NCBI GenBank assembly: GCA_044372955.1
Contig: JBILQY010000001.1
Coordinates: 1 to 32,172, forward strand
Direction: 5' to 3'
From: Crocinitomicaceae bacterium
GTDB lineage: Bacteria; Bacteroidota; Bacteroidia; Flavobacteriales_D; Crocinitomicaceae
Length of the DNA stretch: 32,172 nucleotides
The position numbers were made by a program, and so were the translations under genes. Under the pieces are notes generated by a model that had not been told where the DNA came from, did no database searches, and saw only the letters and a list, made by a program, of their open reading frames with translations. Below, one piece after another: positions 3,932 through 29,878 of this stretch. Position 1 is the stretch's first letter, and every line of letters begins with the position of its first letter.

Positions 3932-4291
3932 ATGAGAACTGGTCTTGCGAATCAAAAATTGGATGCTATAATTTCTAAGGTTGAACAACACGGTGTTTCC
4001 GCGCCAAACTTGGTTGACGATTTAAAAGATTTACGCGAATCTGCATTGTTAGAACAAGATCCTTTGGTTGTAAAAGTATTGCGTTTAACGTATGAGTTTT
4101 TAGCTGAAAATGAGGCTTTTGATGTTGAAGCTCAGTATGAAGAAGATGAAGAAGGAAATGAATATCCTATCGAAATCGACGACAAAGACAACCTTTTGTA
4201 TTTGTTGAATCTTCTTAAAAATGCGGAACACAAAATCAACCGCGAAGAAATTAAAGATTACAGAACTTCTCTAAAAATGGAGTTGTATTAA
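3932..4291 (+). CDS. Hypothetical acidic protein (119 aa from the ATG at 3932)
   Basis: The ORF track starts at a TTG at 3860, but a TAACTTTG promoter box lies inside that extension. I take the ATG at 3932 (MRTGLANQKLD...) as the start. No recognisable family. Confidence 0.6.
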   Translation: MRTGLANQKLDAIISKVEQHGVSAPNLVDDLKDLRESALLEQDPLVVKVLRLTYEFLAENEAFDVEAQYEEDEEGNEYPIEIDDKDNLLYLLNLLKNAEHKINREEIKDYRTSLKMELY

Positions 4292-4483
4292 TTTCAGAAT
4301 TTTATCTAATTTATTTTTATTTCCCATTTAAATAGAGGCTAAATGAGTTAGCCACTAAATTTCTCTATGAGCTATACGGTCAATACTAGTATAGTTTTAT
4401 GAAATTTTCAATGTTTAAAAGTAAAAAGAGCCCTTGCTTTTAATGACTTAAACTTTTTCAAATTTGTAGTAAATACAGAAACT

Positions 4484-5458
4484 ATGAAAATTTTAAACGT
4501 AACTATTCAAGCAATTGTTTTAACAGCAATCGTGAGTGCCTGCGTTCCTTCTAAAAAATATAAAGAACTTGTTGCTAGAGAAAAAACGTGTGCTGAAGAA
4601 TTAGAGAAATACAGAAAAAGTAGCGATGAATTTGAAGCGGCTTCCAAAGATTTAGGCACAAAATATGACATCGCAAGTAAAGATGTTTCCAAACTTAAAC
4701 AAGACACAACAAGTTTAGGCAACACGTTGCGATTTTTAAAACGTGATTATAGCCAACTATTAGAACAACACGAATCGCTTGAAAAATCATTTGATAAGTT
4801 GAAAAACTTAAGTGCCAAAGAAACCGCAACCTTACAATCAGAATTGGAAGCGAAAAATAAAGAATTACAATCGAAAGAGAATGCACTTTTAAAATTAGAT
4901 CAAGAATTAAAAGCCAAAGAAGTTTTATTAAAAGAGCGTGAGAAACGTGTAAATGAATTGGAAGAAGCAATTCGTAAAAAAGACGCAATCGTCCAATTGT
5001 TGAAGGCGAAAGTGGCAAATGCACTTGTTGGTTTTGAAAACAAAGGTTTAACTGTAATTCAGAAAAACGGAAAAATTTACGTGAGTTTAGAAGCTAAATT
5101 GTTGTTTAAATCTGGAAGTACATTCGTTGAACCAGAAGGAAAAGTTGCTTTAATTGAACTTGGAAAAGCATTAGAAACAGAAAAAGACTTAGAAATTGTC
5201 GTGGAAGGTCACACGGATGCTGACAAATTAATAAGTCCGACTTCACCAAAAAACAACTGGGAACTTTCTGTTTTGCGTGCTACATCAGTTGTTGAAATTT
5301 TATTGGCAAATTCAAAAATGAATCCAAGTCAAATTATGGCAGCAGGTCGCGGAGAGTTTTTTCCTGTAAGCACAACAGACAAAGCAAAGAATCGTCGCAT
5401 TGAAGTAATTATTTCTCCAAACCTAAACGAATTATTTGAAATTATTTCCAATGATTAA
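4484..5458 (+). CDS. OmpA/MotB-domain lipoprotein with an N-terminal coiled coil
   Basis: Lipoprotein signal ...LTAIVSAC. Long K/E/L-rich coiled-coil segment. C-terminal OmpA-like motif VVEGHTDADK...NWELSVLRATSVVEIL...GRGEFFPV...NRRIEVIISP. Confidence 0.85.
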   Translation: MKILNVTIQAIVLTAIVSACVPSKKYKELVAREKTCAEELEKYRKSSDEFEAASKDLGTKYDIASKDVSKLKQDTTSLGNTLRFLKRDYSQLLEQHESLEKSFDKLKNLSAKETATLQSELEAKNKELQSKENALLKLDQELKAKEVLLKEREKRVNELEEAIRKKDAIVQLLKAKVANALVGFENKGLTVIQKNGKIYVSLEAKLLFKSGSTFVEPEGKVALIELGKALETEKDLEIVVEGHTDADKLISPTSPKNNWELSVLRATSVVEILLANSKMNPSQIMAAGRGEFFPVSTTDKAKNRRIEVIISPNLNELFEIISND

Positions 5459-5460
5459 AA

Positions 5461-7470
5461 ATGGCAACTAAGTCAATAAAAGGAAAAGAAAAACAAAAAG
5501 CTAGCGCAGTAGAAACGAAAGAAGTGCTACCAAAAGAAACTTCTTCTCGCTCGAAATGGCTTATCATTATAGGAATCTTAGCCTTAACTTTTATTGCTTA
5601 TTTACCCGGTTTTTCACCCGAAAAGGAATTTACGAATTGGGACGACTTGGGTTATGTGGTTGAACAACCTTTGGTAAAAACAAGTAATCCCGATAGTTTA
5701 AAACTACTTTTTGAGCCAACGACACAGGTGATGTTGAATTATCATCCGCTGACAATGTTAACATTGGCTTATAATTATTCAAATGCGGAATTAGACATTC
5801 AACCTTATTTCAAAACAAATCTATTTCTTCATCTTTTAAACACTTTTTTAGTTTTCTTGGTGCTTTTTAAATGGAGTAAAAGTTCGCTTTACATTGCTGG
5901 TTTTGGCGCATTAATTTTTGGAATTCACCCGATGCACGTTGAAAGTGTTGCGTGGATTTCTGAACGAAAAGATGTCCTTTATACCTTTTTCTTTTTGCTT
6001 TCCTTACTTAGTTATTTAAGGTACCTCGACCGTCAAAAAATCGCCTGGTTACTTGTTGCTTTTGTATTGTTTATAGCTTCTTGTTTAAGTAAAGCAATGG
6101 CGGTTCCGCTTCCGCTTGTTTTTCTTTTGGTCGATTTCTTGTACAAAAGAAAGTTTTCAGTAGCTGTTATCTTGGAGAAAATTCCGTTTTTGGCACTCTC
6201 CGTTTGGTTTGGTTTAAATGCTGTTAAAATTCAGTCCGCTGGTGCTATTGCAGAATTTGAAGTCTTCACCTTGTTTGAGCGTGTAATGTTTGCCTCTTAC
6301 GGCTTTTTGATGTATTGGGTTAAGTTTTTCGTGCCAACAAATCTTTCTGCTTTTTATCCTTACCCAACTTTTGGTGAAGACAAAGCTTTACCAATAATTT
6401 ACACACTTGCGCCATTTATTGTGCTTTCGTTAGTCTTGACTCCGCTCATCTATTTTTACAAAAAGCAAAAGTCGAATTTTAGAATTTACCTCTTCGGAAT
6501 GGGGTTTTTCGTTTTAATGATTGCCTTAGTTCTACAATTTATTTCTGTTGGTTCGGCAATTATGGCGGATAGATATGCTTACATTCCTTACATCGGTGGA
6601 AGTTTTATGCTCTTGGTATTTGCTTTTAATTTCCAAGAAAAACTAAAAAATAAGCGTGTCATTCCAGTGATTCTTTCGATTTATTGTTTGTTCCTTTTCG
6701 TTCAGAATTATAAACAAGTTGCAATTTGGACCAACTCTGAAACTTTGTGGTCAAATGTAATTGAGCAATATCCATTTGTTATTGAACAAGAAGGAAACAA
6801 AGTATTTGTTAGGCAAACAGGTGTTGAAGTGGCACATAAAAATCGTGGAAACTACTACCGAGAGCACGGAAGAATGGATTTAGCATTTAAGGACTACGAC
6901 ATTTTAGTGAGTGCACGCGTGAAAGATCCATTGGTTTACAGCAATATGGCGAATATGTATGCTTTGGAAGGTAAGTTCCAGGAGTCGATTGATATGTACA
7001 AAATGGCTTTGGAGCGCGATTCTAGCTCCTTTGATGTATATGTAAACCGTGGAATTACTTATACTAAAATGGCACAACGAGAAAATGCAATTAAAGATTT
7101 TAAGAAAGCACTTGCTATACAACCGAAAAATCAAATGGCTTTATCGAATCTCTGTTCAGAATTAGTGAATAGCAGCAATTTTAAAGAAGCAATCATTTAT
7201 TCAAATTCGCTAATAAAATTATATCCAACAAGTTACGACGGCTATTTCTACCGCGGAACAGCAAATGTCAATTTAGGAAATCATACAAGTGCATTAGAAG
7301 ATTTGAATCAATCCATAAAATTAAATCCAAACTATATGTATAATTGGTTCAATGCTTCTGTTTCCTACAAAGCAATTGGAGATTTAAAAAAGGCGTTGGA
7401 ATATGCCTTGAAAGCTAAAGAATTGGGTATGGAAGTTAATCCTGCTTATTTGGAGAGTTTGAAAAACTAA
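5461..7470 (+). CDS. Polytopic membrane protein with a C-terminal TPR domain (PMT/GT39-like, TMTC-type architecture)
   Basis: 669 aa. About 10 hydrophobic segments in the N-terminal 430 aa, then TPR-like repeats (NRGNYYREHGRMDLAFKDY..., NRGITYTKMAQRENAIKDFKKALAIQP..., FYRGTANVNLGNHTSALEDLNQSIKLNP). It starts 2 nt after the OmpA gene. Confidence 0.65.
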   Translation: MATKSIKGKEKQKASAVETKEVLPKETSSRSKWLIIIGILALTFIAYLPGFSPEKEFTNWDDLGYVVEQPLVKTSNPDSLKLLFEPTTQVMLNYHPLTMLTLAYNYSNAELDIQPYFKTNLFLHLLNTFLVFLVLFKWSKSSLYIAGFGALIFGIHPMHVESVAWISERKDVLYTFFFLLSLLSYLRYLDRQKIAWLLVAFVLFIASCLSKAMAVPLPLVFLLVDFLYKRKFSVAVILEKIPFLALSVWFGLNAVKIQSAGAIAEFEVFTLFERVMFASYGFLMYWVKFFVPTNLSAFYPYPTFGEDKALPIIYTLAPFIVLSLVLTPLIYFYKKQKSNFRIYLFGMGFFVLMIALVLQFISVGSAIMADRYAYIPYIGGSFMLLVFAFNFQEKLKNKRVIPVILSIYCLFLFVQNYKQVAIWTNSETLWSNVIEQYPFVIEQEGNKVFVRQTGVEVAHKNRGNYYREHGRMDLAFKDYDILVSARVKDPLVYSNMANMYALEGKFQESIDMYKMALERDSSSFDVYVNRGITYTKMAQRENAIKDFKKALAIQPKNQMALSNLCSELVNSSNFKEAIIYSNSLIKLYPTSYDGYFYRGTANVNLGNHTSALEDLNQSIKLNPNYMYNWFNASVSYKAIGDLKKALEYALKAKELGMEVNPAYLESLKN

Positions 7471-13854: not shown

Positions 13855-14087
13855 CTCCGCCGTGGCGGACGCAATTCGCAACTCCTAGCAGTTTGTACTT
13901 CCATTCGCGATTCTATCGCTAGCAATTCGCAATTCCTAAGCGGTCTGTACTTCCTCCGTCGCGGCGGACGCAATTCGCAATTCCAAAGCAGTCTGTACTA
14001 CCGTTCGCAATTCTACCGTTCGCAATTCCTAAGCAGTTTGTACTACCGTTTGCAATTCGCAATTCTGTCGTTCGTAATTCGCAATTA
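13855..14087. repeat. Higher-order tandem repeat built from AATTCGCAATT-type words, a ~33-nt core (gcaattcgcaaYtccNaagcRgtYtgtactNcc, 4 copies) and two GC-rich palindromes
   Basis: Cores start at about 13871, 13922, 13970 and 14019, spaced about 48-51 nt. ctccgccgtggcggacgcaattcgcaa (13855) and ctccgtcgcggcggacgcaattcgcaa (13954) define a duplicated unit of about 97-99 bp. A tail of ttcgcaatt variants runs to 14087. Confidence 0.85.
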
Positions 14088-14152: not shown

Positions 14153-15898
14153 ATGTATCGCTCGCACACTTGTGGAGAATTAAGAATGGAACACGTTGGT
14201 ACTACTGTATCTTTAGCAGGTTGGGTACAACGTTCAAGAGATTTAGGTGGAATGACGTTTACCGATTTACGTGATCGTTACGGTCTTACACAGTTAGCTT
14301 TCAACATGGAAGTGAATGCCGATTTGTGCGAACAAGCAAGAAAATTAGGACGTGAATTTGTGATTCAAGCAACTGGAATCGTTATCGAGCGCAGTAGCAA
14401 GAACAAAAATATGCCAACGGGTGAAATCGAAATCAATGTGACGGAATTGAAAATCCTGAACGCTGCGAAATTACCTCCATTTACGATTGAAGACGAAACG
14501 GACGGTGGCGACGAAATCAGAATGCAATACCGTTATTTAGATTTAAGAAGAAATCCAGTGTTGCAAAAATTGCGCTTGCGTAATCAAGTGGCATTGGAAA
14601 CAAGAAAATACTTGGATTCGAAAGAATTTTTAGATGTTGAAACTCCTGTTTTAATTAAATCTACACCTGAAGGAGCGCGCGATTTCGTGGTGCCAAGTCG
14701 CATGAACGAAGGACAATTTTACGCTTTACCGCAATCACCGCAAACGTTCAAGCAATTATTGATGGTTTCGGGTTTCGACCGTTACTACCAAATTGTGAAA
14801 TGTTTCCGCGATGAAGATTTACGTGCAGATAGACAACCAGAGTTTACACAAATCGACTGTGAAATGGCATTTGTGGAGCAAAACGACATCTTAGAAATGT
14901 TCGAAGGTTTGATCAAGCATTTATTCAAAACAGTTCGTGGCGTTGAATTTGAAGGCGCGTTCCCGAGAATGACCTACGCTGAAGCAATGGAAAAATACGG
15001 TTCAGACAAACCAGACATTCGTTTTGGAATGGAGTTCGCGGATATGACCGATTTAGCGCACGGAAAAAATTTCGTGGTTTTTGATAGCGCAGAAGCTGTT
15101 ATTGGAATCAGTGCACCAGGTTGTTCTGAATACACACGCAAGCAATTAGACGAATTAACGGAGTGGGTGAAACGTCCACAAATTGGTGCCAAAGGATTGG
15201 TTTACATCAAATACAATACAGACGGTACGTTCAAATCATCAGTAGATAAATTCTACTCTGAAGAAGATTTGAAAGCGATGGCTACACGTGCAAATGCACA
15301 ACCGGGTGATTTAATTTTATTGTTGTGTGGCGATTTAGAAAAAACGCGCAAACAATTGAACGAATTGCGATTGAATTTAGGAACGACATTGGGATTGAGA
15401 AATCCAGACGTATTCAAACCATTGTGGGTGTTGGATTTTCCATTGTTAGAATGGGACGAAGAAAACGAACGTTACCACGCGATGCACCATCCATTTACTT
15501 CTCCGAAACCAGAAGATTTCCATCTGATAAACACAGAACCTGGAAAAGTACGTGCGAATGCTTACGATTTAGCGATGAATGGAGTAGAATTGGGCGGTGG
15601 TTCAATTCGAATTCACGACAGAGCGTTGCAATCGCAAATGTTTGACTTATTAGGTTTCACGAAAGAAGAAGCGCAAGCACAATTTGGTTTCTTGATGAAT
15701 GCTTTTGAATACGGCGCGCCACCACACGGAGGTTTGGCTTTCGGTTTAGATCGTTTAGTTGCCACAATGGGCGGTTCAGAATCAATCCGTGATTACATCG
15801 CTTTCCCAAAAAACAACAGCGGTCGTGACACAATGATTGATGCACCTTCTCCATTAGATGATAAACAATTGAAAGAGTTAGGGATTAGGTTGAGATAA
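14153..15898 (+). CDS. aspS: Aspartate--tRNA ligase
   Basis: [11 protein letters not shown]...[94 protein letters not shown]. Confidence 0.97.
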
Positions 15899-15943
15899 AA
15901 AGTATGCAAATTGAAAGTTAGTGTTTCAATTTGCATACTTTTT
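15897..15943 (+). terminator. Strong rho-independent terminator of aspS
   Basis: agtatgcaaattgaaa-gttagtg-tttcaatttgcatact gives a perfect 16-bp stem, extendable by the flanking AAAA/TTTT. A T run follows. Confidence 0.85.
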
Positions 15944-16058: not shown

Positions 16059-16107
16059 AAAAAGTTCAATTCTGACAATGGGATTAATAAAAAAAACTTT
16101 TTCGGCT

Positions 16108-16611
16108 TCATTTTTTGTACCCAACTTGTTTGCGTTCCCCTTGTTGAATTTGTTTTTTATCCTTTTGAATGAGGTATTTCAAAACTTGTTCAATGTCGTA
16201 GAATTTATGGTTATAACGGTTTTCAAGATCTTTTAATTGTTCCGAAAGTTCTTGGTAAGTAAGTGCAAATTGACGCATCAAAACAAAAGCGCGCATAATA
16301 CTGATATTTACATCAATTGCAATTTCTGAATTTAATACACTTGATAACATTGCCACACCTTGCTCTGTAAATGCAAAAGGTAAGTATCGTTGCCCTCCCC
16401 AACTTGAGGTCGCAAATTGCGACCTCAAGTTTTCCCATTCCTCTGGCGTTAATTCAAACATAAAATCATCAGGAAATCTCTTGATATTTCTTCTTACTGA
16501 CTCTTTTAATCTCTTAGTTTCTGTTTGATACATTTTCGCCAATTCTAAATCGAGAATGACCTTTTTTCCTCTGATTTCGAGGATGCTACGTTTGATTAAT
16601 TCTAGTTCCAT
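16108..16611 (-). CDS. ORF6N (KilA-N-like DNA-binding) domain protein, copy 1
   Basis: 167 aa. IxEIRGKKVILDxxLAKMYQxETKxLKxxVRRNxxRFPxDFMFELT...PFAFTEQGVAMLSSVLNS...IMRAFV.MRQ is the canonical ORF6N pattern. Confidence 0.85.
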   Translation of the reverse strand: MELELIKRSILEIRGKKVILDLELAKMYQTETKRLKESVRRNIKRFPDDFMFELTPEEWENLRSQFATSSWGGQRYLPFAFTEQGVAMLSSVLNSEIAIDVNISIMRAFVLMRQFALTYQELSEQLKDLENRYNHKFYDIEQVLKYLIQKDKKQIQQGERKQVGYKK

Positions 16612-16691
16612 TTGTTGTTTTTCAATTTAAGTTAGTGAAATAGCTGATTTCAAGAAACAAGTTTGAGCAAAAAAAACAGTCTTTTTCAGCT

Positions 16692-17204
16692 TCATTTTTT
16701 GTACCCAACTTGTTTGCGTTCCCCTTGTTGAATTTGTTTTTTATCCTTTTGAATAAGGTATTTTAAGACTTGTTCAATGTCGTCAAATTTTTGGTTGTAA
16801 CGGTTTTCAAGGTCTTTTAATTGTTCCGAAAGTTCTTGGTAAGTAAGTGCAAATTGACGCATCAAAACAAAGGCGCGCATAATTTGAATACTTGCATTAA
16901 TTGCACATTTAGAATTTAAAACAGCACTTAACATTGCAACACCTTGTTCTGTGAATGCAAAAGGTAAGTATTTTGGAAAATTCCCTTTACCATTTTTAAA
17001 CATCACAAATTGTGATCTTTGAATTTCCCATTCTTCTTTGGTTAATTCAAACATAAAATCATTTGGAAAACGATCCATATTTCTACGAACTGCTTGTTTC
17101 AAAACTCTAGTTTCTACCTTATAAATTGTTGCTAAATCCATATCAAGCATAACTTTCTTTCCTCTGATTTCGAGAATACTACGTTTAATTGATTCTAGTT
17201 CCAT
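16692..17204 (-). CDS. ORF6N domain protein, copy 2
   Basis: 170 aa with the same motifs. Its last 63 residues differ from copy 1 at 2 positions. Confidence 0.85.
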   Translation of the reverse strand: MELESIKRSILEIRGKKVMLDMDLATIYKVETRVLKQAVRRNMDRFPNDFMFELTKEEWEIQRSQFVMFKNGKGNFPKYLPFAFTEQGVAMLSAVLNSKCAINASIQIMRAFVLMRQFALTYQELSEQLKDLENRYNQKFDDIEQVLKYLIQKDKKQIQQGERKQVGYKK

Positions 17205-17284
17205 TTGTTGTTTTTCACTTTAAGTTAGCGAAATAGTTCATTTCAAGCAATAAGATTGAGTAAAAAAAACAGTCTTTTTCAGCT

Positions 17285-17791
17285 TCATTTTTTGTACCCA
17301 ACTTGTTTGCGTTCCCCTTGTTGAATTTGTTTTTTATCCTTTTGAATTAAGTATTTTAAGACTTGTTCAATGTCTTCGAATTTTTGGTTGTGTTTGTTTT
17401 CGAGGTCTTTTAATTGTTCCGAAAGATCTTGATAAGTAAGTGCAAATTGTCGCATCAAAACAAAAGCGCGCATAATATTTATATTTACCTCTATTGCCAC
17501 ATCAGAATTCAAAAGCCCACTAAGCATTGCAACTCCTTGTTCTGTAAATGCAAAAGGTACGTACCTTATTCCGCCTTGTTTTTTTGAGGTGCTAAAATTG
17601 CACCTCAAACTACTCCACTCATCATTAGTTATTTCAAACATAAAATCAGGAGGAAATCTTTTTAGATTGTTTCTTACCGTACGTTTTAGATATTTAGTTT
17701 CAACTTGATACATTTTCGCTAACTCAAAATCGAGAATGATCTTTTTTCCTCTGATTTCGAGGATGCTACGTTTGATTAATTCTAGTTCCAT
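17285..17791 (-). CDS. ORF6N domain protein, copy 3
   Basis: 168 aa with the same motifs. Its last 63 residues differ from copy 1 at 5 positions. Confidence 0.85.
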   Translation of the reverse strand: MELELIKRSILEIRGKKIILDFELAKMYQVETKYLKRTVRNNLKRFPPDFMFEITNDEWSSLRCNFSTSKKQGGIRYVPFAFTEQGVAMLSGLLNSDVAIEVNINIMRAFVLMRQFALTYQDLSEQLKDLENKHNQKFEDIEQVLKYLIQKDKKQIQQGERKQVGYKK

Positions 17792-17887
17792 TTGTTGTTT
17801 TTCACTTTAAGTTAGTGAAATAGTTCATTTCAAGCAATAGGGTAAAGCAAAAATTAAACGTTTTTTAAGGAACCAATTTCTTTCTTG

Positions 17888-17918
17888 AACTTGGTATCAC
17901 ATTTTGTGATACCAAGTT
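17888..17918. promoter_or_regulatory. Perfect 31-nt palindrome (14-bp arms, 3-nt centre) in the divergent promoter region; candidate operator
   Basis: aacttggtatcaca-ttt-tgtgataccaagtt. It lies 97 nt upstream of the ORF6N copy 3 ATG and 61 nt upstream of the ATG at 17979. No flanking T run, so it is not a canonical terminator. Confidence 0.5.
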
Positions 17919-17978
17919 GAATTTCTAATACTTACAAACTTTTTACTATCAAGTTTGTTTCTTCAAAAAAAATGTAAA

Positions 17979-19322
17979 ATGAATAAATTTTTCTATCTCA
18001 CTTTTGCTTTCTTTATTTCATCAGCCGTTTTGGGCCAACATATAGGAATTGTAAGGAAAAACTATTTTAGTACTGTTTTTGACCCAATTATAAATGCCAA
18101 CATCGAACAGTTTGATTCTTCAACAATTCGTTTAGGTACTGTTGATCCTTTATCTGGTGTTGTTTCCAATCTTAGTGAGATTGAGTATCCTTTAGCCATT
18201 AATTTAACAGGAGCAACAATAAATCCTTATTCCAATCACTATTACATTGGAAGTGGTTTAAATTTATTGACTTTCGATATTTCTTCTGGAAATTTAATTA
18301 ACTCGGCACCAATCTCTGGAGAAATCCCTTCGGCCTATTTTCAAAATTATCGTTTCAATCCAAGTGATACTACAATATATGGTATGATACCTCAAAATTT
18401 CTACTCGGTCTATTTTGATAGTCTAGTAATGTCAAACATAGAAGTGCTAGATTCAACGCAAATTCGCTTTGGTTCAATAAATCCTTCGTCAGGTGTTTTT
18501 ACTTTAATCGGGAATACTTCTTACAATAATATTTACACATTAGCGGGTAATTCAATTGACCCTTTTCAGATGGTTTATTACTATTCCGCGGTCAACAAAT
18601 TAATAGGAATCGACCTATACAATGGTGCTCCATTTAGCGTTGTGAATATTCAACTTCCAGTAGGGGGAATTTTTGAAAATATTGCTTACAGTTGTGCTGA
18701 TACAAGCATTTATGGTTTAACACGTCAAAGTTACGTATCAACAGTTTACGATGAAATCTTAATGGAATACGTCCAGATTTATGATTCTACAACGTTTAGG
18801 CTATCTAAAATTGATCCGAATACGGGTGTTGTGACATTTATTTCTCCTTACAATATTCAAGCAGGTGGAAATTTAACAGGTGGAGCTTTCATAGATCCTG
18901 CAACAATGACTTATTTTTTTAATCACGGAAATAAAATCGTTGGTGTATCGATGATTACGGGACTTATTACTTCTTCTGTGATAAAAAGTTATCCCTCAGG
19001 TGAAATTGCATTCGATATGATGCGAAGCACACAAAATTGCTATGGCGTAAGCCGAATGAGAAACAATAGTGCACTCGAAATCGACGAACTTTCAACGATG
19101 AATAGTGAAGTTATCTTGTATCCTAATCCAGTGCAAAGTGAATTAAACATTAAAAGTAAAAAAGCAATTCAATCTACTTCAATCATCGATTTAAGAGGAA
19201 GTGTTTTAATTGAAAGTTACACAAATACAATAACAGTAAATCAACTTCCAAATGGAGTATATTTTGCTAAAGTTAAAACTACTGATGGTGGAATTATTGT
19301 TTGTAAATTCATTAAAAACTAA
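17979..19322 (+). CDS. Secreted protein with three internal ~110-aa repeats and a T9SS type A (Por secretion C-terminal) sorting domain
   Basis: Signal peptide MNKFFYLTFAFFISSAVLGQ from the ATG at 17979. Repeats: YFSTVFDPIINANIEQFDSSTIRLGTVDPLSGVV / FYSVYFDSLVMSNIEVLDSTQIRFGSINPSSGVF / YVSTVYDEILMEYVQIYDSTTFRLSKIDPNTGVV. C-terminal VILYPNPVQSELNIK...LPNGVYFAKVKT. Confidence 0.8.
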   Translation: MNKFFYLTFAFFISSAVLGQHIGIVRKNYFSTVFDPIINANIEQFDSSTIRLGTVDPLSGVVSNLSEIEYPLAINLTGATINPYSNHYYIGSGLNLLTFDISSGNLINSAPISGEIPSAYFQNYRFNPSDTTIYGMIPQNFYSVYFDSLVMSNIEVLDSTQIRFGSINPSSGVFTLIGNTSYNNIYTLAGNSIDPFQMVYYYSAVNKLIGIDLYNGAPFSVVNIQLPVGGIFENIAYSCADTSIYGLTRQSYVSTVYDEILMEYVQIYDSTTFRLSKIDPNTGVVTFISPYNIQAGGNLTGGAFIDPATMTYFFNHGNKIVGVSMITGLITSSVIKSYPSGEIAFDMMRSTQNCYGVSRMRNNSALEIDELSTMNSEVILYPNPVQSELNIKSKKAIQSTSIIDLRGSVLIESYTNTITVNQLPNGVYFAKVKTTDGGIIVCKFIKN

Positions 19323-27218: not shown

Positions 27219-28700
27219 ATGAAACTTAAAAACATTGCAATTAAAAATTTTAGATGTTTTGAAGAAATAGAATTAGATTTTGGATCTAAAACAACTGTAT
27301 TTATTGGAAAAAACGGCACAGGAAAATCAAATATTTTAAGTGCAATAAGAAGGGGTATGAGTTTTATGTTTGCTGAGGATTCAAAAATTAAAAATGATAT
27401 TAATTCTTTGAAGGCAAATAATAACAGTGCTGTTAGAAGATTTGAACCCAATGACACACGTATTGATTCATATAAAGAAGGTGGATTTTGTTGGCCAACC
27501 TCTATTCAGTATAAAACAACTTTTAACAAAGAACTGATTGAGTGGGAGTTTTACAAGAAAGGGATTTCCAGCAGATTAGACCAATCGTTTTATAAAGACG
27601 CAAAGAACAAAGTATTAAACGAATTAAATAATGAAAAAACATTTCCATTATTAGCCTTTTTTGCTGATTCATACCCACACAAAGAAATGAATGTTGGGAA
27701 AAATGCAAAAGAATTAGTAAAACTTAAAAAAATGCCGAAAGACTTTGGCTACTACGGATGGGACGAGCATGTTAATTGCAACAATATTTGGTTTTCAAGA
27801 TTTTTGTTCGCTGAAAATCTTTATAAAGAAAATATTGATCGAATCAACAACTTGAAAAAAACCATCGAAAACCATCAAAACTCATACAATTCTTCAACTG
27901 ATTTAGAGGAGTTTAAAGATAGATTAGATGAATTAAAAATTAGAGAATCTAACATAATAAATTCCAATCAAGCACTTAATCAAACCTTAGCGATTGAAAA
28001 AAATTATATTGCCGAAAAAATTATAAAATTTACTCAACCACTTTCGGAAAATAGAAGTTTTATTAATGATGAATTTGAAATAATAGAAGTCTATTCTAGT
28101 CATACTGTTTTGGACAAAAAGCCTAAAATTGTTTTTCAATTCAAAAATGGTAAGTCCATGAATATCGAGACAATGCCGATGGGATATAAAAGACTACTGT
28201 CAATTGTATTTGATTTATCTTATCGGTCATTTATATTGAATGGAAATGATCTTGAACCAGAAGGAATTGTAATGATTGACGAAATTGAATTGCACTTGCA
28301 TCCAACCTTACAGCAAGATGTATTGGAGCGGTTTACACGAACTTTTCCTAAAATTCAATTCATAATTACAACCCATTCTCCTTTGGTTATTAGTAATTTC
28401 AGAGTAGATAATGATAAAAACAAACTAATTAAACTAGAAAACAATAATAATATTTACACCAAAGAATATGTTGAAAATATATATGGCTTAGATTATTCAA
28501 CTAATCTTTCAGAAGTGATGGAGATTGCGCCACGTTCTTCAACTATTGATAAATACATCAATGCCTATTTGTTCCTATTTAGAAAAGAAAAAGTACAAGA
28601 AGCGAATAAAATGCTCGATAAACTAAAGGATTATTTGGGTGGTGATATACCGAAACTTCTTCAGAAGGAAATAGAAACTCAAAAAGCAAAAATTCAATAG
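27219..28700 (+). CDS. ptuA: ABC/OLD-type AAA ATPase (AAA_15/AAA_21-like), Septu PtuA-like
   Basis: N-terminal MKLKNIAIKNFRCFEEIELDF....VFIGKNGTGKSNILSAI (Walker A). Helical middle region. C-terminal MGYKRLLSIVFDL (signature-like), VMIDEIELHLHP (Walker B / D-loop) and FIITTHSPLV (H-loop). Confidence 0.6.
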   Translation: MKLKNIAIKNFRCFEEIELDFGSKTTVFIGKNGTGKSNILSAIRRGMSFMFAEDSKIKNDINSLKANNNSAVRRFEPNDTRIDSYKEGGFCWPTSIQYKTTFNKELIEWEFYKKGISSRLDQSFYKDAKNKVLNELNNEKTFPLLAFFADSYPHKEMNVGKNAKELVKLKKMPKDFGYYGWDEHVNCNNIWFSRFLFAENLYKENIDRINNLKKTIENHQNSYNSSTDLEEFKDRLDELKIRESNIINSNQALNQTLAIEKNYIAEKIIKFTQPLSENRSFINDEFEIIEVYSSHTVLDKKPKIVFQFKNGKSMNIETMPMGYKRLLSIVFDLSYRSFILNGNDLEPEGIVMIDEIELHLHPTLQQDVLERFTRTFPKIQFIITTHSPLVISNFRVDNDKNKLIKLENNNNIYTKEYVENIYGLDYSTNLSEVMEIAPRSSTIDKYINAYLFLFRKEKVQEANKMLDKLKDYLGGDIPKLLQKEIETQKAKIQ

Positions 28701-28703
28701 TTC

Positions 28704-29486
28704 ATGCACTATATTGATAAGTCTTTAAATTCAAAAATTGGAACTGCAATAGTTGATGATTTTCTTGACAAATGTTGGAATGGAAAAGAATATCACGCTG
28801 CAAACTACGCTACTTTTTCTAAACCAGAATTTAGAAATTCCTTTGTTGATGTCTTATTGGATGAACAAAAGAATTTATGTTGTTATTGTATGAAGGAACT
28901 TCAAAATGACCATAAGACAACCTTAGAACATATAATTCCACAAAATATCAAAAACACAAGCCAATTCAATGAATATTTAACATTTAAAGAGCTTGGAGAT
29001 AATGTTATAAATAAAATAGACTTTGATCAAAAAAATAAGATTATTCCTCCTTTAAAATACCCTCACGACCTATCATTTCACAATTTGATAGCATCTTGCG
29101 ATAGTAAAGCTAATTGCAATAATAAAAGAAAGGATGAATATATAAAACCATTAATATACGATACCGATATTCAATTCAAAGTCGAATATGACCGAAAAGG
29201 ACAAGCTTTTAGTTTAGACTATTTTGATGAACTTGAAACATTAGGGGTTTCAACCAACAAAAATTTGATTCTATTTAGATGGATTTGGGCAGAAATATCA
29301 AAAATGAAAGATATTGATGTGAATTCAATAAATGAGGAAACAATTGAAGAAATTTTGTTGACTTTGGAATACCCTCAAAATTTTGAAAGTATAATTGAAA
29401 ACTTTTTTGATAACCCTTCAAAAAAAACCGATTTATTAAAATATAAGTGGTTTTATAATTATTTTAAAAACGAAACCAACTCATGA
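28704..29486 (+). CDS. ptuB: HNH (His-Me finger) nuclease of the TIGR02646 / Septu PtuB-like type
   Basis: CCYCMKEL......TLEHIIPQN followed by FHNLIASCDSKANCNNKRKD (HNH core: CxxC...EH...N...CxxCNxxK). 3 nt downstream of the ATPase gene. Confidence 0.55.
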   Translation: MHYIDKSLNSKIGTAIVDDFLDKCWNGKEYHAANYATFSKPEFRNSFVDVLLDEQKNLCCYCMKELQNDHKTTLEHIIPQNIKNTSQFNEYLTFKELGDNVINKIDFDQKNKIIPPLKYPHDLSFHNLIASCDSKANCNNKRKDEYIKPLIYDTDIQFKVEYDRKGQAFSLDYFDELETLGVSTNKNLILFRWIWAEISKMKDIDVNSINEETIEEILLTLEYPQNFESIIENFFDNPSKKTDLLKYKWFYNYFKNETNS

Positions 29487-29878
29487 ATTTTTCCTTCGGA
29501 AAAGAATACAAATTGTGCAGTCACAAACAGATTGATTATCTTTTTAAAGAAGGCAAAAAAATCAAAGAATATCCGATTACAATCATTTATTCACCTACCG
29601 AATTGCTTGCTACTACGCAATTTCAACTACTTATTTCGGTTCCGAAGCGACTTTTTAAAAAAGCGCACGACCGCAACTATATCAAACGTTGTATCCGCGA
29701 GGTGGTGCGAAAAAATAAACACGAATTGGAAACACAACTCGAAACAAACGATAAGAAACTTATTTTTGCAGTCGTTTATACTTCCAAAGAACATCTGGCG
29801 TTTTCAGTATTGGAACAGAAATTGGTCAAGGCGATTGGCAAATTAACTTTACAAATAAATCAAAATGATAAAAATTAA
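29483..29878 (+). CDS. rnpA: Ribonuclease P protein component
   Basis: 131 aa and basic. N-terminal FGKEYKLCSHKQIDYLFKEGKKIKEYPITIIY...SVPKRLFKKAHDRNYIKRCIRE matches the RnpA pattern (K..rL....ef..vf..gk; vsKK..k.AV.RN..KR..RE). Confidence 0.85.
   Translation: MNFSFGKEYKLCSHKQIDYLFKEGKKIKEYPITIIYSPTELLATTQFQLLISVPKRLFKKAHDRNYIKRCIREVVRKNKHELETQLETNDKKLIFAVVYTSKEHLAFSVLEQKLVKAIGKLTLQINQNDKN

Follow-up and report, generated by a model that had tools for sequence, protein, structure and literature searches.

Three tandem ORF6N genes with homogenised junctions, distinct cores and intragenic palindromes that covary with a predicted recognition helix in a Crocinitomicaceae bacterium

Domains of the ORF6N/KilA-N type abound in phages, mobile elements and candidate defence genes. 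In phage antirepressors, KilA-N, Bro-N, ORF6N and Rha occur as N-terminal domains. The ORF6N family is already known both as a Pfam domain and as the single-gene, ORF6N/RhuM-like PADLOC candidate PDC-S05, of which one representative, carrying a RhuM domain, protected E. coli against T7, T5 and T4, with plating of T7 and T5 down about 1000-fold in E. coli B. RhuM-like genes were reported in restriction-modification loci in 2013, and a preprint on embedded defences names neither PDC-S05 nor ORF6N. The literature that we searched gives no DNA target or mode of action for the ORF6N/KilA-N-type family, and that on PDC-S05 gives no mechanism or DNA site and no description of arrays that we could find. 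Here we analyse a stretch of 32,172 nucleotides (the window) from contig JBILQY010000001.1 of a Crocinitomicaceae bacterium, in which three paralogous ORF6N genes, c1, c2 and c3, form a tandem array. The gene junctions of this array are homogenised while three old cores stay distinct, and each core contains a palindrome whose centre covaries almost one-to-one with three residues of a predicted recognition helix encoded by the same gene. The genes are as follows.

16108–16611, reverse strand: c1, ORF6N gene of 167 amino acids, intact, class R34/E37
16692–17204, reverse strand: c2, ORF6N gene of 170 amino acids, intact, class V34/Q37, missing in sister contig L081
17285–17791, reverse strand: c3, ORF6N gene of 168 amino acids, intact, class Y34/R37, transcriptionally first

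Transcription runs in the order c3, c2, c1. The start-to-start distances are 593 and 587 bp and both spacers are 80 nt long, in agreement with an earlier note, made from the sequence of the window, which had described three same-strand paralogues of these lengths in units of about 590 bp, separated by nearly identical 80-nt spacers.

All three proteins match the Pfam family ORF6N (PF10543) over residues 9 to 92 or 95 with E values of 1e-32 to 8e-37, and belong to it by scores of 125.8, 117.1 and 112.2 bits against a gathering score of 27.8. The likeness to PDC-S05 lies in the full-length match of each of them to the PADLOC model PDLC04856 (residues 3–166 on positions 9–176 of a 177-position profile, E 1e-53 to 1e-56); of the 306-position model PDLC04869, only the N-terminal half is matched (positions 15–170). 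Unlike the assayed PDC-S05 protein, c1–c3 have no Pfam match to Virulence_RhuM at E <= 0.01 and are not members of that family, and they form a tandem array amid housekeeping genes. A weak Rha match is also found in Pfam, NCBIfam assigns no family, and a sequence search of the PDB returned nothing significant. The best PHROG is an anti-repressor family (E 5e-33), and a collection of deposited phages contains five matching records only, all below 60% identity. This PHROG match, the predicted fold and the viral palindromes described below make up the likeness to phage antirepressors, from which the window proteins differ in lacking a prophage context, in being short (167–170 amino acids) and in having a helical tail of their own.

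The AlphaFold2 (AF2) model computed from a diverse alignment (predicted local distance difference test score, pLDDT, 81.9) has a KilA-N-like fold. Its N-terminal part comprises strands 10–13 and 16–20, helices 21–27 and 32–41, strand 51–53 and helix 56–63, followed by a low-confidence loop (64–78), strand 79–82, helix 83–93 and two long helices (96–133 and 140–158), the last two fitting the helical C-terminal module proposed in the earlier note. A Foldseek search of BFVD gave nine matches at E <= 1e-3, down to 7e-7, including viral KilA-N DNA-binding proteins and antirepressors. The best Foldseek matches in the PDB, Dachshund/SKI DHD domains, were too weak to use (E 0.08), and a model built from a shallow alignment, in which all sequences were at least 77% identical to c1, was discarded for its pLDDT of 58.6 and an implausible N-terminal helix. 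Between residues 112 and 136 the tail sequence has a heptad-like hydrophobic spacing (M112, F115, Y119, L122, L126, L129 and Y133). A search with the tail alone among 1.8 billion representatives found 221 proteins at E <= 1e-3, nearly all of the best 150 being short fragments or ORF6N-sized, and did not find the tail joined to other domains. On balance, we take the locus to be a tandem array of three paralogous small, predicted DNA-binding proteins of the PDC-S05 family, each with an ORF6N domain and a predicted helical tail.

The three genes differ from one another in a strikingly uneven manner. In the protein alignment, residues 1–17 are identical apart from position 5 (the identity had been noted for the first 16), and the last 63 residues differ from those of c1 at two positions in c2 and five in c3, exactly as counted before; over the whole protein, c2 and c3 are 79% and 81% identical to c1. 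In sliding windows of 40 nt, identity is 88–100% from about −50 to +50 around each ATG, 43–82% in the core and 82–100% over the final ~200 nt, and the three copies are 100% identical in every such window from the last ~50 nt of the coding sequence into the first nt past the stop codon. The longest identical runs between copies (66–75 nt) are never reached on permuting the differences (p = 2e-4 per pair). Identity is hence far from uniform and forms a sharp mosaic, in which the homogenised segments are not two separate gene ends, as had been thought, but continuous junction blocks of ~325 nt, each spanning the end of one gene, the spacer and the start of the next. The two blocks are 90.8% identical to one another, and the cores share 65–69% nucleotide identity; the earlier description of the cores as strongly diverged should be read in the light of this figure and of the many invariant residues within them in the protein alignment.

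17154–17479, reverse strand: junction block 1, homogenised tract of c3 codons ~105–168, the 80-nt spacer and c2 codons 1–17
16561–16883, reverse strand: junction block 2, homogenised tract of c2 codons ~108–170, the 80-nt spacer and c1 codons 1–17
17480–17740, reverse strand: c3 core, type B, residues 18–104
16884–17153, reverse strand: c2 core, type C, residues 18–107
16300–16560, reverse strand: c1 core, type A, residues 18–104

The synonymous divergence (dS) between the window copies is 0.98–1.18 in the cores versus 0.23–0.32 in the tails (Fisher p 6e-4 to 1e-2), and the non-coding spacers are near-identical too. Among 22 genes from related arrays, pairs within one array have identities of 0.69 in the core and 0.93 in the tail, whereas pairs from different arrays have 0.69 and 0.77. 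In L006 and L086, which are more distant, every tail has its closest counterpart in an array-mate (0.92–0.96, versus at most 0.84 in any other genome), and every core has its closest counterpart in another genome. Between genomes, on the other hand, conservation is higher in the core (0.91) than in the tail (0.77) for 53 c1-type proteins of different contigs, a comparison to be read with the caveat that these matches were ranked by overall similarity to c1, and the tail is the least conserved part of the family-wide alignment (31–62% identity to c1). The pattern within arrays is thus the opposite of that between genomes, so that stronger purifying selection on the termini cannot be its only cause. 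An ancient triplication and subsequent selection of this kind on the N-terminus and the tail, with no gene conversion, would agree with core types that are old and common to several genera, but it is contradicted by tail synonymous sites four to five times less diverged than those of the cores, by the likeness of the non-coding spacers, and by tails that are specific to their arrays, and we regard it as exceedingly improbable.

In the sister contig L081, precisely one unit, c2, is missing, and the deletion junction falls in the spacer; the contig is otherwise virtually identical to the window over about 1.6 kb, its ~9 single-nucleotide polymorphisms being clustered and confined to the c3 tail. 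In sum, the array evolves in concert, and we hold with high confidence that the ~325 nt around the gene junctions are kept alike by gene conversion, as the earlier note had suggested for the flanks, while whole units are lost through unequal crossing-over. Orthologous cores are 94–100% identical at the nucleotide level between genomes, so that each core type represents an old, conserved lineage, and the three cores are old types that stay distinct. They do so despite conversion acting on both sides, which argues for selection. The "diversifying retention" proposed for the cores therefore holds in its second word: distinct old types are retained, but diversification is not what their conservation between genomes and their ratios of non-synonymous to synonymous divergence (dN/dS, 0.24–0.32 between window paralogues) indicate.

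It is a general population-genetic phenomenon that tandem paralogues evolve in concert around selected islands of divergence. The array resembles it in that the flanks are homogenised, the centres are kept apart and copy number shifts by unequal exchange, and differs in that its island of divergence is a predicted DNA-recognition domain, with the putative site of that domain embedded in it. It offers a clean natural example of gene conversion confined by selection, in which the flanks are homogenised and three cores persist.

A tandem triplet from metagenome data could in principle be an assembly artefact. The ORF6N family is very large (at least 8000 matches), many homologues lie on contigs of 1–2 kb, as expected for repeats that break assemblies, and a two-copy version of the locus exists in L081. 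However, the same order of 168, 170 and 167 amino acids is found on an independent metagenome contig from another sample, which makes an artefact unlikely; in addition, the cores are unique sequence, and the longest identical runs between the copies are judged shorter than typical reads. We give this explanation hardly any credence.

Within the core of each gene, the coding sequence contains a palindrome.

16401–16431, no strand: c1 intragenic palindrome, AACTTGAGGTCGCAA-T-TTGCGACCTCAAGTT, 15-nt perfect arms, centre TCGCAA
16998–17020, no strand: c2 intragenic palindrome, AAAGATCACAA-T-TTGTGATGTTT on the coding strand, one mismatch, centre TCACAA
17583–17609, no strand: c3 intragenic palindrome, TTTGAGGTGC-AATTTTA-GCACCTCAAA, 10-nt perfect arms, centre GTGCAAT

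An inverted-repeat scan shows that the palindromes of c1 and c3 share their codon position, and a hairpin at codons ~60–70 is predicted in nearly all of 89 distinct genes, mostly at −12 to −32 kcal/mol, over the peptide N-L-R-S-Q-[F/I]-x-T-S. Inside ORF6N genes, palindromes whose arms reach 10 nt or more occur at 1.74 per kb, versus 0.166 per kb outside them (902 kb), a tenfold difference. Pairing and covariation were assessed on 79 distinct sequences against 500 shuffles: in the 12-bp helix, 93.1% of cells are paired versus 71.5% in shuffles, and there are 183 double-sided changes versus 42.9, values that none of the 500 shuffles reaches, while controls slid along the sequence pair in 30–42% of cells only. 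Codon use at the palindrome departs sharply from that in the rest of the same genes (AGG for 86% versus 12% of Arg, ACC for 94% versus 26% of Thr, TCA for 98% versus 19% of Ser), and the synonymous choice at Ser predicts the residue three codons further on (Val follows TCA in 31 of 32 genes, and Ala follows TCG in 16 of 16). The palindrome is under selection at the nucleotide level, not merely as a peptide.

The palindrome is found in four other phyla and is present in 65 of 80 viral ORF6N loci, as well as in plasmid-borne ORF6N genes of Sulfuricurvum, Haliovirga, Treponema and Legionella. The homologue in Butyrivibrio is without the intragenic copy and has a family-type palindrome with 13-nt arms 13 nt upstream of its start codon. 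Two adjacent palindromes lie within one ORF6N gene in L016 (~4209–4751) and in L075 (6001–6591), with the peptides LRTQFATSNPLRSQIASS and LRLQIVSSSSNWSQIVTSS, which suggests a local duplication at the palindrome. Literature searches with the palindrome sequences, and for KilA-N together with a palindrome, found no description.

We compared the palindrome with the protein encoded around it, which includes the predicted recognition helix (codons 32–41), in 145 distinct genes from cells, viruses and plasmids.

16489–16518, reverse strand: c1 predicted recognition helix, codons 32–41, TKRLKESVRR
17082–17111, reverse strand: c2 predicted recognition helix, codons 32–41, TRVLKQAVRR
17669–17698, reverse strand: c3 predicted recognition helix, codons 32–41, TKYLKRTVRN

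Residue 37 and the palindrome centre go together: Gln37 with TCACAA in 64 of 64 genes, Glu37 with xCGCAA in 33 of 34, and Arg37 with GTGCAA or xGCCAA in 29 of 29. Expressed as a fraction of the entropy of the palindrome type, the mutual information reaches 0.90 at residue 34 and 0.87 at residue 37, whereas every other column not encoded by the palindrome itself stays at or below 0.31, including the variable neighbours 26, 29, 43, 44, 48, 56 and 57. Base 4 tracks residue 37 (0.95) and residue 34 (0.84), base 5 tracks residue 37 (0.92), and base 7 tracks residue 33 (0.85), with Lys33 accompanying G in 87 of 88 genes and Arg33 accompanying A in 37 of 39. In the AF2 model, helices 21–27 and 32–41 form a helix-turn-helix-like pair, and residues 33, 34 and 37 share one face of the second of them. 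The pairings of Gln with A, Arg with G, and Glu with C on the other strand agree with known amino-acid–base contact preferences.

Between the palindrome centre and residues 33, 34 and 37 of helix 32–41 there is thus a nearly one-to-one covariation. Simple linkage should raise the mutual information of all variable columns nearby, which is not what we see. The divergent gene pair L071_6716 and L071_7317 makes the same switch (R/E with CG, V/Q with CA) with the palindrome in another reading frame, over the peptide VVxNCDH, where the base change alters a different amino acid, which argues against co-evolution at the protein level. On a tree for which the helix and the palindrome had been masked, about 34 changes are needed for either character, with one violation of the mapping. 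Direct protein–DNA recognition is, to our mind, the probable reason for the covariation. The window copies fall into three classes, R34/E37 with TCGCAA (c1), V34/Q37 with TCACAA (c2) and Y34/R37 with GTGCAAT (c3), which we read as three candidate DNA specificities; the earlier proposal of alternative DNA-recognition modules on a constant tail is thereby supported.

Palindromes of the same type also stand alone, beside genes, in more than ten loci, one of them upstream of the array.

17885–17921, no strand: solo palindrome upstream of the array, 17-nt arms (94% complementary), core GGTATCACAAAATGTGATACC, TCACAA type, outside ORF6N frames

This copy is about 95–130 nt upstream of c3 and of the same class as c2, and only the palindrome itself resembles ORF6N coding sequence in its surroundings. 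In L080 (4724–4939), the 220 nt preceding an ORF6N gene hold three family-type palindromes, whose arms reach 25 nt; the intragenic palindrome of that gene is degenerate, and the upstream arms are extended symmetrically beyond the coding copies. The exact 17-mer GGTCACAAWTTGTGACC occurs in 118 viral stretches (L173–L251, IMG/VR). The viral 17-mer scan was set aside as a means of finding targets, most matches having no ORF6N gene nearby, many being terminator-like, and any enrichment over chance being obscured by the redundancy of related contigs.

The strength of the predicted hairpins and their covarying pairing would also be expected if the palindrome acted as a hairpin in the mRNA, in stability, ribosome pausing or translational autoregulation by the protein, instead of as a site in double-stranded DNA. 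Solo copies in spots that are likely transcribed (13 nt upstream of the ATG in L170, and just past stop codons in L172, L060 and L061) and terminator-like versions in viral contigs point the same way. Against an RNA element, however, stand the scarcity of G·U pairs (about 1% of cells, without enrichment among mismatches), a centre in which the bases themselves are conserved and not their pairing alone, and the covariation of that centre with residues on one helix face in a fold related to DNA-binding KilA-N/Bro-N proteins; a search of Rfam gave no matching family, hairpin noise only. We consider the RNA hairpin unlikely and continue with a double-stranded DNA site.

If the covariation reflects direct read-out, helix 32–41 would be the recognition helix of a helix-turn-helix-like unit, the proteins would bind their own palindromes as dimers through the tail, and c1, c2 and c3 would read the three different sites TCGCAA, TCACAA and GTGCAAT. 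Binding within the protein's own gene could lead to negative autoregulation. Palindromic sites read by helix-turn-helix-type dimers have parallels. The auxiliary operators lac O2 in lacZ and gal OI in galE are intragenic, and the C proteins of restriction-modification systems use palindromic C-boxes. A site in a coding region can repress, and the ORF6N palindrome resembles these systems by analogy only; it differs in lying inside the coding sequence of the regulator's own DNA-binding domain, where it is conserved across phyla and imposes codon and amino-acid choice.

The chromosomal copies share their site classes with ORF6N genes of phages and mobile elements, and could therefore work in trans on such elements as they enter, silencing or sensing those of the matching class as a three-specificity immunity array. 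With tail and promoter converted, the copies would remain equal in expression and might be able to pair with one another, and selection for distinct specificities would halt conversion at the cores. We put forward a role of the array in immunity or defence tentatively. The fullest version, in which ORF6N proteins are sequence-specific binders with a cognate palindrome in the domain's own coding sequence, residues 33, 34 and 37 set the class, and arrays block the matching palindrome in incoming antirepressor-type ORF6N genes, is possible but more doubtful still. Under direct read-out, the target of any member would be predictable from three residues, the coding sequence would be constrained by the binding site of its own product, and PDC-S05 would gain a testable mechanism.

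Several observations weigh against recognition, autoregulation or defence. Helix and palindrome are ~70–110 nt apart in one gene, so that part of their covariation could be linkage moved by recombination, and the 34 changes on the tree are likewise not all independent mutations, part of them being recombination. The reading-frame argument is one switch in a single case. The class of solo palindromes matches that of the adjacent ORF6N gene in 13 of 23 cases versus 12.5 in shuffles, that is, at chance, which leaves simple autoregulation through solo sites unsupported. Of the 80 viral 17-mer stretches that were fetched, 53 are without an ORF6N homologue, and many of those 53 are terminator-like (A-run, hairpin, T-run). 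The assayed PDC-S05 protein has the RhuM domain that c1–c3 lack, so its protection result is not directly transferable. Finally, the array has housekeeping and type IX secretion genes as its immediate neighbours and does not lie in a defence island.

The relatives extend this picture. The nearest ones are Crocinitomicaceae/Lishizhenia metagenome-assembled genomes (Bacteroidota), and two or more tandem copies occur in 16 of 81 related loci across Bacteroidota. Related Crocinitomicaceae arrays always adjoin ribF, with or without the Por_Secre_tail gene, and their far flank varies (aspS, a Peptidase_S46 gene or an AbiEi/AbiEii pair). Each of these arrays combines 2–3 cassettes, and at least six core types are represented among them, some being mosaics of sub-modules. 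In L034 (Dysgonomonas), L071 and L075 (Saprospiraceae) and L006, termini are common within the array and cores have diverged, with tails quite unlike those of the window. The design of shared termini and diverged cores recurs independently in distant Bacteroidota arrays, and its repeated evolution suggests that several specificities on one shared tail are useful. The claim that the array is not a described system is accordingly too broad as to the family, which PADLOC lists, and as to tandem arrays, which are common; in the literature searched, we found no description of the homogenised-junction design, the self-encoded palindrome or the residue code.

Some relatives sit near defence genes, a further likeness to PDC-S05. 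The homologue on a Treponema plasmid (L171) is enclosed by hsdM and hsdS as part of a type I restriction-modification operon, and the locus L002 adjoins AbiEii. In L013 (6542–12474), an ORF6N pair precedes genes for a KilA-N domain protein, a 1108-amino-acid PLD/SNF2 helicase and an N6_Mtase-like protein, a defence-type neighbourhood, and in L019 (6871–8789) two tandem YhcG/DUF1016 PDDEXK-nuclease genes come directly after the ORF6N gene. The proteins P0121 (282 amino acids) and P0122 (312 amino acids) have the top profile scores with two domain matches each (ORF6N and Phage_pRha) and are probably fused tandem copies.

Other relatives have ties to mobile elements. In 14 marine Flavobacteriaceae loci, a single ORF6N copy comes directly after a conjugative-element integrase. 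In L037–L042, L045, L047, L048, L051, L057 and L067 (about 4714–6520), the gene is directly downstream of a 421-amino-acid integrase; these genes lie at the edge of what is seemingly the same conjugative element across genera, and their palindrome is in another reading frame (peptide EVITNCDNLPE). The three-ORF6N arrays of L003 (5494–7956) and L006 (6001–8368), at two different chromosomal sites, are each followed directly by a 279-amino-acid tyrosine recombinase, and may represent a mobile ORF6N–recombinase module. Two of the three ORF6N copies of L003 are interrupted, and L002 also has interrupted copies.

The integrase and recombinase neighbours, the interrupted copies and the anti-repressor family as best phage match are what one would expect if the genes were leftover regulators of degraded phages or integrative elements, selfish or neutral, and the homogenised array a by-product of duplication. 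But all three window genes are intact with core dN/dS well below one, the core types are conserved across genomes, the cores remain distinct in the face of conversion on either side, and the arrays recur at one chromosomal site amid housekeeping genes without other element genes. We judge leftover regulators improbable, and return to an array maintained by selection.

The array is flanked by aspS (14153–15898, forward strand) on one side and by a Por_Secre_tail protein gene (17955–19322, forward strand), then ribF, on the other. By Pfam, the neighbours in the window are ispG, aspS, the Por_Secre_tail protein, ribF, a leucine-rich repeat (LRR) protein, a CHU_C protein and PorP/SprF, among which the array is neither embedded in nor next to a known defence system, as PDC-S05 genes can be. 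There are no restriction-modification genes among the flanking genes of the array, and no phage genes among the window open reading frames (ORFs) scanned against Pfam, nor is the array placed in a prophage beside genes for a repressor or lysogeny; the earlier note was right that phage and restriction-modification genes do not adjoin it.

Tyrosine recombinases directly after the arrays of L003 and L006 and a copy number that varies by whole units would also suit an integron-like or shufflon-like cassette array, in which the junctions or the palindromes are sites of a site-specific recombinase. Yet no recombinase or invertase is found among the window ORFs scanned against Pfam, and neither the adjacent integrase nor the attC hairpins of an integron is present by that scan and the spacer scans: the spacer 17205–17284 has no inverted repeat of at least 10 nt, and the sole pair touching the other spacer is 76% complementary. 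The 4-nt spacers of L006 leave no room for attC-like sites. Tyrosine recombinases use an overlap region of 6–8 bp, whereas the palindrome centre is 1–3 nt; homologous unequal exchange explains the L081 deletion; and all copies lie on one strand, unlike those of a shufflon or phase-variable locus. A cassette array is very improbable, and concerted evolution by homologous exchange remains our explanation of the junctions.

The promoter scan and the inverted-repeat scan gave the following features at the array.

17804–17833, reverse strand, with equivalents at 17217–17246 and 16624–16653: promoter-like TTGAAA-18-TAAAGT, a sigma-70 consensus match only
15900–15940, no strand: hairpin with perfect 17-nt arms, between the aspS stop codon and the end of c1

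Each spacer has one equivalent promoter-like site; their number is not above the shuffled expectation, and Bacteroidota promoters deviate from the consensus used. The terminator scan found no terminator-like hairpins in the spacers. The hairpin beyond c1 is likely a bidirectional terminator that marks the boundary of the array.

The GC content of the window is low, about 0.29–0.41. Just upstream of aspS, at 13855–14028, there is a 48-nt tandem repeat (three copies, 70% matches) and a 15-nt repeat (two copies). Further along, a 493-amino-acid AAA_15/AAA_21/SMC_N ATPase (27219–28700) is followed by a 260-amino-acid protein without a Pfam match (28704–29486) and a 131-amino-acid ORF; these genes span 27219–29878, lie in a patch of lower GC content (0.285–0.30 versus 0.35–0.40 around it) and are probably an acquired defence-type module. 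At the start of the window, a gene for an Uma2 putative restriction endonuclease (93–692) and a gene for a 23S rRNA intervening-sequence (23S-IVS) protein (786–1139) are flanked by arrays of the 16-nt repeat ATTAGCACATTAATCC at 13–64, 696–787 and 1212–1374, the last with ~10 copies.

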